DNA of 64,000 nucleotides from Candidatus Aenigmatarchaeota archaeon (GTDB taxonomy: Archaea; Aenigmatarchaeota; Aenigmatarchaeia; Aenigmatarchaeales; JACQIB01). The stretch is from the NCBI GenBank assembly GCA_016198755.1, contig JACQIB010000005.1:191271-255270 (forward strand). Direction: 5' to 3'. Position 1 is the first letter of the stretch. Each line of letters begins with the position of its first letter. The notes under the pieces are model-generated. The model made no database searches. It was not told the origin of the DNA and saw only the letters and a list, made by a program, of their open reading frames with translations. Position numbers and translations under genes: made by a program. Below are positions 44,240 to 49,357 of this stretch, piece after piece.

Positions 44240-47200
44240 TTATGTGAATGTTGTGGTTGTTGTAGTGGTTGTTGCAGACCCGCCAGAAAATAGTTGGGAG
44301 AAATAAGATAGAATTCCGCCTGACCATGCCTCTTTTGCATTGGCATCTTTATCATATTGGTCTGCCTGCTCCTTCAGGAAGCTTATCTGCTCTGATAAGG
44401 AAGCACGTGCATCCACATTTCCAACAGAATCTGCTATAAGCTGTAAGTTAGTTGCAATTTCCCTTAGCTTCTCAGCCTTTTCTCTTAAGAAAATAGAATC
44501 CTTCCTCTCCTGTTCAGCTACCATTCCAAAGAACTGCTGCAAAGCATATCCAACATCAGCACTCTTGTTCTTTACCTGTTCCACACCGGCTGAAACCTCC
44601 AGTATATCATTCTGGGATTCGCTTACGCGTGGCTGTAAAGAAGTTGGTATTTTCTCCAGTTCCTTCATTGTTTCCAGCTTCCCTACAAAATTCTTAAGTT
44701 CACTTCCCTTTTCAGCAGGGGCTGAAGAAAGCTCTACATGATCCACATCCACATCTGACAGGAATTCTAACCTTCTCAAATCCCCGAGCCTGTTAGGAGC
44801 TGCAGTTCCCCTGTAAATATAGACTCCTGCTAAGTTAAGCGGAGCATCATCAAACTTTATTGTCAATCCCCTGACTTTGGTTATCTGGTCTGATGTTAAT
44901 TTTTTGTCGCTTGATAGAACAACAGGCAGGACTGAAATCTGGCTTACATCTTTCACTATTTTGTAGTCTTTGAATTTGCACAGGTCAGATGTGACCCTGT
45001 CAGCTACCTTCTCTGCAACAAGCTCTGGCTTGAATTTATCTGGATCGCAGTTTGCAGCCCTTTCCTTTACTGCTTTGCACTGCCTTGGAAGTTCGTTGCA
45101 TACAAATCTTGCCTTTTCCATGAAAGTACTGCAAAGAGAAGTCCTGTCGAATGTTTCCACAGAGGTTGGTTCAGCTGTCTGTAAACCTGTGGCAACATTT
45201 AGAACCTCACCGTTTCTAAGCACAAATGCACCTGACACTGGAGTAGCTGGAATGCCTTTCTCCGTGGATTGTTGGCACCTTGGTATATTTGCGCACCCTG
45301 TTTGGTCTTTCTCAACTACAAAAGAACCTCCGCTATTTTTACAGGCGTCTATCATGGATTCAGTTGGAACAAAAGGTCTGCACTCCTCTCTTCCTGAACA
45401 AAACTCATCAGACTTTTTCTTCATATCTTTACATCTGAATTCAATTTCCCTGTCGCACTGTACTGCACCTTTCTGCAGCTCTGTACACATATCTGTTATA
45501 CTGCCGCGCACAGAAAGCTCATATAAGGTTCTGCGTTTTATCTCTTCCTTTATGTCATTTGGATTTTTGCATATGCTGTCTATAAACGCTGGCGGGAGCT
45601 CAGATTTTATATGACGAAGGGCTTCTGCTGAAAGGAACTCGATAGGATCTGTTGTAAACATGAAAGACGGTGTATCTGACGGTGGTGGAGCTGGACCTGT
45701 ACCGCCCGGTCCCCCAAACTGGGAACAACCAGTTAAAGTCCCGAGTTCCTGCTGCTCAATTATCCTTCCATATGGTATGTTGTAAATTACCCATGTTGGA
45801 TAGTTCTTTATGCCTTTCTGGGCACAAACATTAGGTTGCTCATAACAGTTTACAACCCTTCCAAGATCCTTTAGTACATTAAAACTGTTTCCAAGCAGTG
45901 TTGCTTGCTTTACACTTGGGTGGTTGCCTGCTTCATCTTCCTGTTGGCTTGTTGGGGATGGATTAGTATAAACATAAAGTTCTAGTCCTGAGTTCTTTAC
46001 GCAGCGCTCCAAAATTGCCCTGTCAGTGCCCTGTACAGAACCTGAACAGGCTCCAACAGCTTTTCCTCCCTTCTCAGTACAGCACCATGCCCCTGATGCA
46101 ATATCCCATGTGGGTTTGGAATATTCTTTGGCTTGAGCCGGACAGTAAAAGCCTGGAGGAGGATCTATTGCCTTGCAGTCACCTGGACAGGATCTCTCTT
46201 CTCCTGATTCGCAAATTAAATTCCCGCAGAAAGAAATTTGAGTACAGTCAGCAGGACAGGAGAAACTTGTTTCCCCCTGTTCACAGCGGTTGTTTCCGCA
46301 GACAAAACCGCCTACAGGTTTACCGCAGTCCTGTGCACAAGTCCCTGTTGTCTCCCCGAATTCACAAATATTATTGCCGCAGACTGAGCAGGTAGGCTGT
46401 GGTGAACAGTAACTCCCTGGAGCTGGCGGAGGTGTTACAAGAGTTCCTCCATTGGCAGAGCACTTTCTCTTTAAATCATCGGTATATGAAACAGCAGGAC
46501 AGACATTGCGCTTGCAGTCTGAGCTGCAGCTGTCTGGAGTTTCCCCATATTCACAAAATCCATTGCCGCAGAATGATGGTGTTATTGTTGTTGGTGGCCC
46601 GGTAACAGGACAGCTGGCTGTTGTACAATATCCAGATCCACCTCCAGATGGATAACACCAATTTGACTTCCCAATTTCTTTACAGTCTTTTTCATTATAA
46701 CAGTTCCATGATTGAGCTGACTGACAATAAGGACAGGATTCTCTTGTGCAGTAACCACCTCCTGAATTAGTGCACCAGTTATTCCCTGCGCCCTTACATT
46801 GATCAGGACTATTGCAATAGGAAGGGTATGTACTGGAACATGCCATTGTTGTGGCTGTATAGTAAGTTGTTGTGGTTCCTGAGGGGCAGGTTGGAATGTA
46901 ACAATCTGTCCTGCAGGCATTTGTTGCAGTGTCCTTTGAATTGGAACATGTGACTCTTGTTCCATCAGGACAGGTTTTTGAGCTGGCTGGACAGCCTGAA
47001 TAACCGCAGTAGCCGTTAGAACAATAATTACTTGTACATTCGCTGGGTGATGTGCAGGCTTCTCCATCATACTTCTTTTGTGCTGTGGTTGTAGTAGTGG
47101 TTGCAGGAGCAGGTAAACATACTCCGTTGTTGCAGCCGTATGAACATTGATAACCAAAGGAAGAAAGCTTTCCATTTGAATCACAGAAACCTTCGTTCAA

Positions 47201-48439
47201 CTGTGTTGAAGTTGCACAATAATCATAATAGGTTGAATAGGAGTTTGTTGTGGATTTTGGAGTGTTTGGATTTGGTTCCTGCCCATAAATTGCATTATAG
47301 CCTGCCGCTGCACCTCCATAGATACCAACTGCAACACCGTTTGTATTCGAGTTAATGCCCCCATCAGAATCTGTGCATGCACCGCTGTATGGAGGGGTGG
47401 TGGTTGTTGTGGTTGATTGTGCAATGCAATGCCCATCAGAACAACTGTAACCAGAAGCACATGTCTGAGTCTGAGATGAAGCTGAAGTAGCTTGGCTGGA
47501 ACCGCAATAATATTCTATAACACTGTTACCTGAACAATAGTCTGTATATGTGGCATAATTTACTGTAACGGTGCCCTTTGTGTTTATATCATTCCCATTG
47601 TCAGAATCAATGCAAGCTGAAGGTTTTATTTCCAAGAGCCCATCACTCGTGTCCTTTACGCTCTTTGAATTCTCATAGCAGCTGTTTCTGTCTGCTATGG
47701 TTGGACAGGTTGAAACTCTTACCTTATAACTACCGAGAGAAACATACTCAGGAATAGTCCAAGAAGTTGTGCCTGGATTTCCATTAACATTCACAAGGTT
47801 GCTGACTTTAATAGTTCCAGAAGAGTCCAGCAAATCTATATAGACATAATTTACACCTGAAGATGTCCATGAAATTGTTACAGTGTCTTTAAGTCTCCAT
47901 GTTTCTCCACCGTTTGGGGAAGTTACAGTAATGCTGGCTGGACCAGTTGTGGTTGTTGTGCTGGTTGTAGTTGTGGCTAGAGTTGTAGTTGTTGTGGTGG
48001 TTGTGGTTGTAGCACAGTTTGTAGCTGCGGAGCAGTCAGAATCAGAGCAATCTATTGTACCGTCATAATCATCGTCTTTACCATCAGCGCAGGATGTTTC
48101 TGTTGCAGGCTTCTGAACACTGGCACCGTTGGCACATGTATATGATGCATCATTGGCAGTCGCTGAGCTCAGAACGCAATATTTTGTATAAAGGTCGTTT
48201 GAAACCACATGGTCTGAACAATGGTAATTATTTACACGCCAGCTTTCGCCAACAATACAGTAGTTTCTTCCAGAAGGTTCTGCACCATTGCAAGTGCAGT
48301 AGTATGCACCACTCTTATAACAATCTGCTGCTGTAGTGCACTTGTCTAATGCAAAAGATATTGAGCCAATAGAAGAGAACGCTAGTACAAACGATAATAC
48401 CAAGACAGCAAAAATAAGGGTTTTCCTTGAACCAAGCAT
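44240..48439 (-). CDS. Giant secreted Cys-rich protein (paralog of 22304-25873)
   Basis: Signal peptide, CxDGxDxDxDGxxDC, Ig-like SPNGGE domain, CxDSDxG repeats, CGN repeats, shared C-terminal region. Confidence 0.85.
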   Translation of the reverse strand: MLGSRKTLIFAVLVLSFVLAFSSIGSISFALDKCTTAADCYKSGAYYCTCNGAEPSGRNYCIVGESWRVNNYHCSDHVVSNDLYTKYCVLSSATANDASYTCANGASVQKPATETSCADGKDDDYDGTIDCSDSDCSAATNCATTTTTTTTTTLATTTTSTTTTTGPASITVTSPNGGETWRLKDTVTISWTSSGVNYVYIDLLDSSGTIKVSNLVNVNGNPGTTSWTIPEYVSLGSYKVRVSTCPTIADRNSCYENSKSVKDTSDGLLEIKPSACIDSDNGNDINTKGTVTVNYATYTDYCSGNSVIEYYCGSSQATSASSQTQTCASGYSCSDGHCIAQSTTTTTTPPYSGACTDSDGGINSNTNGVAVGIYGGAAAGYNAIYGQEPNPNTPKSTTNSYSTYYDYCATSTQLNEGFCDSNGKLSSFGYQCSYGCNNGVCLPAPATTTTTTAQKKYDGEACTSPSECTSNYCSNGYCGYSGCPASSKTCPDGTRVTCSNSKDTATNACRTDCYIPTCPSGTTTTYYTATTMACSSTYPSYCNSPDQCKGAGNNWCTNSGGGYCTRESCPYCQSAQSWNCYNEKDCKEIGKSNWCYPSGGGSGYCTTASCPVTGPPTTITPSFCGNGFCEYGETPDSCSSDCKRNVCPAVSYTDDLKRKCSANGGTLVTPPPAPGSYCSPQPTCSVCGNNICEFGETTGTCAQDCGKPVGGFVCGNNRCEQGETSFSCPADCTQISFCGNLICESGEERSCPGDCKAIDPPPGFYCPAQAKEYSKPTWDIASGAWCCTEKGGKAVGACSGSVQGTDRAILERCVKNSGLELYVYTNPSPTSQQEDEAGNHPSVKQATLLGNSFNVLKDLGRVVNCYEQPNVCAQKGIKNYPTWVIYNIPYGRIIEQQELGTLTGCSQFGGPGGTGPAPPPSDTPSFMFTTDPIEFLSAEALRHIKSELPPAFIDSICKNPNDIKEEIKRRTLYELSVRGSITDMCTELQKGAVQCDREIEFRCKDMKKKSDEFCSGREECRPFVPTESMIDACKNSGGSFVVEKDQTGCANIPRCQQSTEKGIPATPVSGAFVLRNGEVLNVATGLQTAEPTSVETFDRTSLCSTFMEKARFVCNELPRQCKAVKERAANCDPDKFKPELVAEKVADRVTSDLCKFKDYKIVKDVSQISVLPVVLSSDKKLTSDQITKVRGLTIKFDDAPLNLAGVYIYRGTAAPNRLGDLRRLEFLSDVDVDHVELSSAPAEKGSELKNFVGKLETMKELEKIPTSLQPRVSESQNDILEVSAGVEQVKNKSADVGYALQQFFGMVAEQERKDSIFLREKAEKLREIATNLQLIADSVGNVDARASLSEQISFLKEQADQYDKDANAKEAWSGGILSYFSQLFSGGSATTTTTTTTFT

Positions 48440-48501
48440 TTAAAAGTTGTGTTTTGCCTGCATAAAAGCTTTCTGTTTTTAACTATTTTAATATAACAGT
48501 G

Positions 48502-48867
48502 TTATATTTTCTTCTCTATGGCTTCCAGCCGCTTTTCTATTTTATCCAGCCTCTTTCCAATATCTTCCCAAGCTTCCAGAACAAGCTCGTGCGGCGGTTT
48601 GTGTAAGTGTTCCGGTGGAAGAGGCCTGCCGCTTTTCAAATGCTCAAGAATTTTCCTGTCTTTCAGGAAATAGTACTTTTTCCCTTCTCTTAATTCCGTC
48701 CCTACTACACCGAGCTCCACCATCATCTGTAAATGGAAATCCACGGTCTGTGGAGCCATTTTCATTTCCTCAGCAATCTGGCTCAGGTATTTTTCTTTTT
48801 CCTTTAAGAGAAGAAGTATCTTTTGCCTTACTTCTGAAGCTAAAACCTTGTGTATCATTTCTGGCAT
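48502..48867 (-). CDS. ArsR-family transcriptional regulator with C-terminal coiled coil
   Basis: LASEVRQKIL..L...LSQIA......TVDFHL..M...G; KPPHELV...RLDKIEKRL. Confidence 0.9.
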   Translation of the reverse strand: MPEMIHKVLASEVRQKILLLLKEKEKYLSQIAEEMKMAPQTVDFHLQMMVELGVVGTELREGKKYYFLKDRKILEHLKSGRPLPPEHLHKPPHELVLEAWEDIGKRLDKIEKRLEAIEKKI

Positions 48868-48981
48868 ACTATTATAGGTGGGTAATATAGTATATAAAGT
48901 TTCCAGTTTTCTATAAAAACAGAAAGCTTTAAATACTTGCAGGTATCATATAACTATATGAAACACGAAAGAGGTGATGTA

Positions 48982-49164
48982 ATGGGAAGTAAAATAGGGC
49001 ATCTCAGAACTGCAGGGACAGGCTTTGCTGCTTCCAGTGCTATAACAGCTGTTTTCGCAGCAGGGCTGCTGCAGGCAGGAATACCTTTGAACGTTGTCCT
49101 TCCAACTTCAGCCCCTGTTTGGATGGGCTTTGGAACCACGCTGTTCATGGTCCTTAAGGACTGA
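48982..49164 (+). CDS. 60-aa hydrophobic Ala/Gly-rich peptide
   Basis: GAGGTGA RBS; MGSKIGHLRTAGTGFAASSAITAVFAAGLL... Confidence 0.75.
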   Translation: MGSKIGHLRTAGTGFAASSAITAVFAAGLLQAGIPLNVVLPTSAPVWMGFGTTLFMVLKD

Positions 49165-49183
49165 AAAAAAGGAGGTGAGAAAA

Positions 49184-49288
49184 ATGCCATTCGAAAGAAA
49201 ACCGCATGAAGAGGTTTTGGAACTTGTGGAGAGAAAATTTGAGGAATTAAACCGCAGGCTGGACAGGATAGAAGAGAAGCTGAGATAG
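49184..49288 (+). CDS. 34-aa coiled-coil microprotein
   Basis: GGAGGTGA RBS; MPFERKPHEEVLELVERKFEELNRRLDRIEEKLR. Confidence 0.75.
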   Translation: MPFERKPHEEVLELVERKFEELNRRLDRIEEKLR

Positions 49289-49357
49289 GAAAGCTGGAAA
49301 TGATGCTGCAGCAGATCCTAAGGCCGGCCAATATATAGAACCTTGATTTGGAAGACT

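Follow-up and report, generated by a model that had tools for sequence, protein, structure and literature searches.

A regulator gene of the ArsR/SmtB fold and a divergently oriented operon of very small genes form a self-contained regulatory cassette in a 64,000-nucleotide (nt) stretch of a Candidatus Aenigmatarchaeota genome (the window, to which all positions refer; the genome itself amounts to 0.89 Mb, or 890,842 bases, in 6 contigs and is an estimated 89% complete). The cassette is conserved, patchily distributed in DPANN archaea and apparently undescribed. The last gene of its small operon encodes a microprotein, here called M, which in the window is 34 amino acids (aa) long and specifically resembles the C-terminal helix of the regulator. 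M may tentatively be read as an antagonist of the regulator, of the kind represented by SinI and SinR in Bacillus subtilis; this reading, taken together with the cassette mechanism proposed below, is judged to have somewhat less than an even chance of being correct.

The regulator gene (48502-48867, minus strand) is supported by an open reading frame (ORF), by the Pfam models HTH_5 and HTH_20 and by an AlphaFold model. In its 121-aa product, residues 1-78 form a winged helix and residues 79-92 a Pro/His linker, and the tail, an amphipathic helix at the C-terminus, takes up residues 93-121 (nt 48505-48591). Divergent from it is an operon of two genes. The first, T (48982-49164, plus strand; alternative in-frame ATG at 48958), is an ORF for a 60-aa hydrophobic peptide with two helices that, from hydrophobicity, would be membrane helices. 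The second, M (49184-49288, plus strand), starts 19 nt after the end of T and encodes a short Pro-rich N-terminus followed by an invariant histidine (His8) and an amphipathic helix. An initial annotation, made from the DNA letters of the window, had proposed that this 34-aa ORF mimics the oligomerisation helix of the regulator, has a strong ribosome-binding site and is devoid of a DNA-binding domain. All three statements hold: the regulator C-terminus and the divergent ORF had been quoted exactly and their likeness is real, the Shine-Dalgarno (SD) site GGAGGTGA lies at 49171-49178 (plus strand), 5 nt before the ATG, and the ORF has no Pfam match. The mimicry of the tail helix is specific and family-wide, both by profile and by register.

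In a BLASTP comparison, residues 88-114 of the regulator and residues 3-33 of M were identical at 13 of 31 positions with one 4-residue gap (E 5e-6, for that single comparison). Because heptad helices easily look alike, a separate profile was made as a specificity test, built solely from the upstream-divergent small ORFs of related loci and searched against six-frame ORFs of at least 20 aa. Among 12,480 such ORFs from the loci (E ≤ 0.01), this M profile recovered 49 upstream-divergent ORFs, 55 regulator tails and no others. Among the 25,223 six-frame ORFs of the window's own genome, it matched M (4e-7) and the regulator tail (1.3e-4), with the next match at 1.3. The likeness is therefore specific and goes beyond generic coiled-coil resemblance, since a profile made of microproteins only picks out regulator tails and nothing else.

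The two helices also share a motif and a register. One histidine is invariant in 46 of 46 regulators (H93) and in 46 of 46 microproteins (H8), and its spacing suggests that it would itself occupy a core heptad position. Counted from this His, strong hydrophobic residues stand at positions 4, 8, 11, 15, 18, 22 and 25 in 100% of 45 regulator tails; in 32 'short' microproteins they stand at positions 4, 8 and 15 in 100%, and at positions 11, 18 and 22 in 91%, 80% and 71%. The heptad pattern is continuous over three to four heptads in tails and microproteins. Ten 'long' microproteins, including that of the window, carry four extra residues after position 8, which account for the gap in the BLASTP alignment. 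By column counts the regulator helix is rich in Lys and Arg in its second half and the microprotein helix is rich in Glu, and a basic helix and an acidic one would be expected to favour the mixed pair.

M is a stand-alone microprotein family with a His/Pro-rich N-terminus followed by a helix. Forty-six credible homologues were aligned; one further candidate (L084, E 1.6e-5) was left out as, by eye, a different 71-aa protein, which reduced the set from 47 to 46. The members are 33-85 aa long (median 45.5), and only the start Met and the one His are invariant. The region ahead of this His contains 25.5% Pro, 17.8% His, 15.2% Glu and 12.4% Arg, with frequent Pro-Pro-His-Glu-Arg-like repeat units. 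Each protein has 1-9 His (median 4; at least 3 in 37 of the 46), the window's copy being minimal with one, and Cys is no feature of the family. When the M profile was compared with 1.84 billion representative proteins (E ≤ 0.001), 59 matches were obtained, 58 of them to proteins of 35-72 aa matched end to end and the remaining one to a 361-aa repetitive coiled coil; no fusion of M to another domain was found in this library. No member has a Pfam match above the curated cut-off, and the window's copy has none at all; HSBP1 and DUF7310 are matched at chance level (E about 0.04) in 2 of the 46 proteins. Among the members tested, there was no match in NCBIfam or PADLOC.

These homologues bear directly on the idea that the 34-aa ORF occurs by chance or is a functionless duplicate fragment in decay. 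It is very short and has no Pfam match, the public sequencing runs that hold the stretch are four DNA runs from one groundwater metagenome study with no RNA run among them, and in one close relative (L124) only its last codons are left. Nevertheless, this explanation can hardly be right, because the 46 homologues, at 20-68% identity, retain the start, frame, stop position, SD site and heptad pattern, and 58 relatives in the library are free-standing. An SD-like match of at least 5 nt lies 3-10 nt before the chosen ATG in 41 of the 46 (a tally of printed scores). The initial annotation had further supposed that the peptide was originally longer. The shifted frame of 17 codons running to 49338 is present as it described; a longer ancestral peptide is rejected, as none of the 46 homologues runs more than a few residues past the last core position, and the window's copy ends there too.

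A genome scan with one genome per species yielded 78 loci, 74 of which (L039-L112) have a regulator with at least part of the winged helix; their record titles name Woesearchaeota, Aenigmatarchaeota, Micrarchaeota, Iainarchaeota/Diapherotrites, Nanoarchaeota and Pacearchaeota. M was called with the M profile as a small ORF on the opposite strand, at most 1.2 kb upstream of the regulator. Of the 74 loci, 46 have such a divergent M (47 before L084 was dropped), and in 45 of these 46 it is the last gene. An independent scan of metagenome contigs gave 19 loci, 3 of which duplicate earlier ones; M is present in 12 of the remaining 16 (two pairs among the 12 being mutually identical) and T in 6. M and the regulator are therefore co-conserved in genomes and metagenomes, and 58 of the 59 library matches are free-standing, whereas the initial annotation had named a lack of co-conservation and a decaying fragment as the outcomes that would speak against it.

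The other small genes of the operon are equally short of annotation. T homologues occur in 28 of the 74 loci (E ≤ 1e-3), with strong conservation in a stretch of the loop and helix 2. Of these 28 membrane peptides, 23 have a P-x(0,1)-H motif within the first 25 residues, and the window's T has few His. No match to T was found in Pfam, NCBIfam or PADLOC, and its best score in the ESM Atlas (0.83, 'Holin') lies under the 0.9 level and is a lead only. Two further small-protein families occur in the divergent operon: K, of about 60 aa (about 50-70), in 13 loci (listed are L039, L045, L047, L048, L063, L069, L073, L085, L087, L089, L090 and L097), and Y, of about 100 aa (about 80-150), in 15 loci (L043, L051-L053, L056, L057, L068, L075, L082, L083, L091, L092, L099, L103 and L108). 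Five Y and four K members gave nothing above cut-off in Pfam, and one member of each gave no match in NCBIfam or PADLOC.

The operon consists of M alone in 14 of the 74 loci, of K-M in 10, of T alone in 9, of Y-T-M in 7, of T-M (the window's type) in 7, of Y-M in 3 and of Y alone in 3, and six other orders occur in one locus each. None of the four families is present in 15 loci, 3 of which have less than 320 nt of upstream sequence. In five loci without M (L058, L065, L074, L090 and L107), small ORFs containing Cys stand in its place. Apart from antisense artefacts, no other neighbour of the regulator recurs in more than 5 loci. The cassette is rare within the window's own order, where a true orthologue was found in only 1 of 40 relatives (G030; loci L007 and L055), with 55% identity and the same T-M operon.

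The 160 nt upstream of the regulator gene have a strikingly conserved layout across loci. A motif of about 26-30 nt, TTTC-N3-TT(T/A)(T/C)(C/A)TA followed by 5-7 nt and then T(A/G)GAA, is present in at least one copy in 65 of 73 upstream regions and in at least two copies in 34 of 73, giving 8.3 copies per kb here and 0.042 per kb in the flanking sequence. Its copies concentrate about -111 and -66 relative to the regulator ATG, each with a TATA-like run after it. A weight matrix was made from 96 sites of other loci, with the window excluded (weakest training site 20.6 bits), and was scanned over the whole 890,842-base genome, where the only matches above 17 bits are two operator-like sites of the cassette. 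Site A (48898-48927, both strands) is a near-perfect 30-base-pair (bp) palindrome that gives the genome's two best matches (29.2 bits on the plus strand, 26.5 on the minus strand) and is flanked by divergent TATA-like elements at about 48891-48899 and 48928-48935. Site B (48943-48972, minus strand; 17.6 bits, the genome's third best) is the copy found family-wide at about -111. At a distance of 45 bp from site A, it lies on the downstream side of the TATA-like element that serves the small-protein operon and, judging from the TATA spacing, probably overlaps the operon's transcript start. This layout is as expected for a local repressor of both promoters, and the regulator may bind there. A regulon reaching beyond the cassette was set aside: the next matrix matches, at about 87741 (16.1 bits) and about 86141 (15.4 bits) of G000 contig C5, lie 1.6 kb apart and are under the weakest training site.

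The regulator belongs to the ArsR/SmtB winged-helix family: HTH_5 (40.5 bits, cut-off 22) and HTH_20 (38.4 bits, cut-off 27) both pass their curated Pfam cut-offs, and the fold agrees. The AlphaFold model, with a mean predicted local distance difference test (pLDDT) of 83.5, shows the winged helix at residues 1-78, a low-confidence linker and a single helix at 92-120. Foldseek matched SmtB of M. smegmatis (root-mean-square deviation 1.1 over 76 columns) as well as CzrA, HlyU and CadC, all with a probability of 1.00, and the matches to SmtB, CzrA and HlyU span only the approximately 76 columns of the winged helix. The best sequence matches of the winged helix among solved structures are Phr (2p4w, E 1.5e-8) and PH1932 (1uly, E 7e-9), and the tail is unmatched in all Foldseek and sequence matches to solved structures (SmtB, CzrA, HlyU, 2p4w, PH1932). 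In NCBIfam, the Phr_regulator model scored 24.2 bits against a cut-off of 320 and aligned with residues 7-72 only, so that the regulator is no Phr equivalog; PADLOC matched only the winged helix of Csa3-like proteins. A word-indexed search with the regulator returned 47 clusters at E ≤ 0.001, the best 45 of them at 50-100% identity, with source names from Nanoarchaeota, Woesearchaeota, Pacearchaeota and Aenigmarchaeota. In an alignment of 46 regulators, H6, H45, P92 and H93 are invariant and the tail is nearly so. A viral origin was set aside, as viral contigs gave only one weak winged-helix match, at 32% identity.

Some further features of the regulators deserve mention. Many of them (e.g., in loci L044, L071, L076 and L081) start with a Pro-Pro-His-type motif just before helix 1, which forms a second weak stretch in the M-profile matches and is absent from the window's regulator. 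Inside the tail-coding part of the window's regulator gene, a 13-nt unit occurs in three direct copies at 48525-48637, whose starts are 21 and 79 nt apart; as 21 nt correspond to one heptad, the helix may have grown repeat by repeat. In three other loci (L113:2971-3120, L114:2238-2387 and L115:3001-3132) only a regulator-tail-like frame is present, of 43-49 aa where a start codon exists, with the winged helix missing in front and, in L115, an opposite-strand ORF of 135 aa abutting it. Such a frame could be what is left of a disrupted regulator gene, or it could encode a free-standing tail peptide.

In the mechanism proposed for the cassette, a dimeric ArsR-fold repressor would bind a pair of palindromic operators spaced about 45 bp, the first between the divergent promoters and the second over the start of the small-protein operon, and would use its C-terminal helix of four heptads to tie together or stabilise the dimers on the DNA. 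A free copy of that helix, namely M, would then come from the last gene of the operon under repression and would pair in register with the repressor tail, so that the invariant His residues of both chains stand opposite one another in the first layer of the core. This pairing would shift the oligomeric state of the repressor and thereby feed back on M's own operon, and the core His together with the preceding His/Pro repeats probably makes pairing depend on a signal, e.g., a metal ion or pH.

Complex prediction, which the initial annotation had named as a check on hetero-oligomerisation, was run with two regulator chains and one M. Three runs gave scores of 0.46, 0.42 and 0.34 (median 0.42), and none of the 3 controls exceeded 0.00; the runs shared at least 55% of their contacts, the pLDDT of the partner was at least 65 and no interface was reported. 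In the calibration of the tool, 116 of 157 solved complexes and 2 of 215 mismatched pairs attained the mark. Scores of 0.60 or less were obtained for only 18 of the 157 solved complexes, plus both mismatches that passed, and the present job was unlike the calibration in that it used its own alignments and three chains (2+1). The result lends weak support to hetero-oligomerisation of M and the regulator.

Several observations weigh against an antagonist that acts on the regulator tail. At a score of 0.42, a pass is more often false than true unless the pairing was already probable on other grounds. The tail keeps the same degree of conservation in the 28 of 74 loci for which no M was detected, which implies that the tail has a function of its own and that M is optional. 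Five genomes with M-less loci were searched whole with the M profile, which returned their own regulator tail in 4 cases, as the coordinates confirmed, and nothing in the fifth; two weak extra frames were seen in these searches (E 0.003 and 0.07). M is widely divergent, with a mean column identity of 19%, whereas the regulator tail hardly varies, and the window's own M has a 4-residue insertion relative to the tail register. Furthermore, simple mimicry leaves unexplained the His/Pro repeats of M and their counterparts in the N-terminal part of the membrane peptide. Finally, T and nearly all of M are gone from the close relative L124, a metagenome contig whose regulator shares 95% identity over residues 1-84. 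At L124:880-940 (minus-strand reading) it retains site A and the TATA-like element, followed by the last 25 nt of the M gene and, directly after them, the gene for ribosomal protein S11, the window equivalents of the junction points being about 48935, 49268-49292 and 50791; the HD and phosphorylase genes are missing as well. The contig is 1229 nt long, and L124 may be a genuine deletion variant or the product of faulty assembly.

In the genome G041, whose cassette is without M, a 59-aa open frame elsewhere (G041:C11:2166-2222) gives a weak, helix-only match to the M profile (E 0.003).

Covariation is a further point to be weighed against the antagonist: the mean normalised mutual information with M is 0.302 for tail and winged-helix columns alike. 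At 37 pairs, the sample is too small for this to count against binding, and no signal stands above shared ancestry. The lack of excess covariation in the tail columns agrees with common descent and no present interaction. M would in that case have arisen by duplication of the tail, or the tail from M, and would now be a homo-oligomer acting elsewhere, e.g., with the membrane peptide or the remaining small proteins of the operon, while the regulator merely controls it. The co-operonic position of M with T, K or Y in 32 of 46 M loci also fits, and the tail-only ORFs of L113-L115 suggest that tails can become separate reading frames. However, M is the sole family of the four detected beside the regulator in 14 of the 74 loci, so that T, K and Y are not needed. 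The His and the register are held in both lineages over several DPANN phyla, which is hard to explain without a shared constraint, and the weak pass in complex prediction, with controls at 0.00, is not accounted for either. Common descent without interaction is considered unlikely.

The histidines raise another alternative, in which the likeness of M and the tail reflects a shared ligand site and no direct binding. The His at the head of the helix, along with the His/Pro repeats of M, of the membrane-peptide N-terminus and of the regulator linker, would bind metal or titrate with pH, the regulator would be the sensor, and M (with T) would be a buffer or handling protein, in the way that SmtB controls smtA; the likeness would represent a common binding module. 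The nearest solved relatives of the regulator fold are the metal sensors SmtB, CzrA and CmtR, and the best NCBIfam model for the regulator is an ArsR/SmtB metalloregulator subfamily, though at 41.1 bits it is below the cut-off of 55. The composition of the M N-termini (Pro and His at the percentages given above, and at least three His in most members), the P-x(0,1)-H motif near the N-terminus of most membrane peptides and the invariant core-position His, which a parallel bundle would bring together, point the same way. Canonical metal-sensing sites of ArsR/SmtB proteins are Cys pairs in or before helix 3, or a His/Asp/Glu cluster in the dimer-interface helix. Placement in the metal-sensing subset by such sites failed: 44 of 46 regulators have no Cys, only H6, H45 and H93 are invariant His, and inspection of the alignment of 46 regulators revealed no conserved His/Asp/Glu cluster in the short helix 73-78 after the wing. 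In addition, the window's M has a single His and its T few, the cassette has no transporter or other metal gene, and the shared 22-residue heptad register is left unexplained. A shared ligand site without binding seems rather unlikely.

An extension of the antagonist reading would make the histidines its centre. The cassette would be a histidine-gated coiled-coil switch specific to DPANN, in which the core His gates both regulator-regulator and regulator-M pairing by divalent metal or pH, a Pro-His relay (M, membrane peptide and linker) senses the signal at the membrane and hands it on to the promoter, and M is a signal-dependent anti-repressor giving bistable expression of the four small-protein families. 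This speculative version is regarded as quite improbable.

Downstream of the regulator lies the ORF of a 1399-aa surface or secreted protein rich in Cys and Thr (44240-48439, minus strand), which the initial annotation had taken to be controlled by the regulator. The protein has a hydrophobic N-terminal segment, many Cys and runs of Thr, and a Pfam scan gave no match. The outer half of site A recurs as a 17-nt inverted copy at 48465-48481 (plus strand), 26-42 nt upstream of the start of this gene at 48439; the repeat arms (48465-48481 and 48914-48930) are 100% complementary, and the 17-nt pattern has 2 matches in the window against 0.11 expected, although as a full site it scores below 12 bits. 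The surface protein may possibly be a target specific to the window, outside the conserved cassette. As a conserved target it was rejected: no gene recurs downstream of the regulator among 75 loci, and because no other neighbour recurs in more than 5 loci, the surface protein is not part of the conserved unit. The supposed control thus keeps a single window-specific half site in its favour and finds no conserved neighbour.

Mimics of oligomerisation domains that titrate transcription factors are well known in plants and animals, and a few bacterial cases exist, e.g., SinI/SinR. The literature search found no helix-mimic titrating partner described in archaea or in the ArsR family, and nothing on the present family. 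If the antagonist reading is true, the cassette would offer a compact and testable archaeal example, consisting of a 121-aa repressor, two 30-bp sites and a 34-aa partner. It sits in DPANN genomes, where most small genes lack an explanation, and gives context to four small-protein families (M, T, K and Y) that are without a match above a curated Pfam cut-off and, in the members tested, without one in NCBIfam or PADLOC. Should the core His turn out to act as a gate for metal or pH, the cassette would in addition offer a natural model of coiled-coil pairing under the control of a signal.

Among known systems, Phr of Pyrococcus furiosus (2p4w) and PH1932 (1uly) are likewise archaeal ArsR-type proteins with a C-terminal extension, but only their winged helix aligns with the regulator, whose tail is far shorter; the operator motif of the cassette presumably also differs from that of Phr. 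SmtB and SmtA of Synechococcus are encoded in a divergent arrangement, and the titles of the matched SmtB structures refer to a cyanobacterial metallothionein repressor. As in the cassette, a repressor of the ArsR/SmtB fold is divergent from the gene of a very small protein rich in metal-ligand residues. However, M combines abundant His and Pro with a lack of Cys, the regulator is without canonical sensing sites, and M resembles its regulator, which SmtA does not. HSBP1 is a small coiled-coil protein that binds the transcription factor HSF1 at its heptad region; this is an analogy to M only, without significant similarity, as the Pfam match is at chance level (E 0.04, 2 of 46 M proteins). The eukaryotic microProteins, such as Id, which acts on bHLH factors, and LITTLE ZIPPER, which acts on HD-ZIPIII factors, resemble the cassette in that a one-domain relative of the oligomerisation domain of a transcription factor is proposed to titrate that factor. 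They belong to another domain of life and to other folds, and the dominant-negative role of M is a proposal.

The closest parallel is SinI/SinR of Bacillus subtilis. The interaction of SinR with SinI involves a helical hook, and the DNA-binding domain of SinR is of a different, phage-repressor-like type. No homology to SinR or SinI was found, as M has no Pfam or NCBIfam match above cut-off and the matches listed for the regulator are ArsR-type and other winged-helix models. SinI is a small protein that is without a DNA-binding domain and resembles the multimerisation region of SinR, the adjacent repressor. According to one report, it forms a heterodimer with SinR through shared conserved residues, which abolishes DNA binding (PMC3163267). 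The archaeal cassette differs in using an ArsR-type winged helix with a single heptad helix, in placing M apparently under the control of the repressor itself, and in the His/Pro repeats and invariant core His of M, and the binding of M to the regulator is here a prediction. What the two systems have in common is the feature that marks the SinI/SinR type: M is a small protein without a DNA-binding domain that copies the C-terminal, oligomerisation-type helix of the adjacent repressor.

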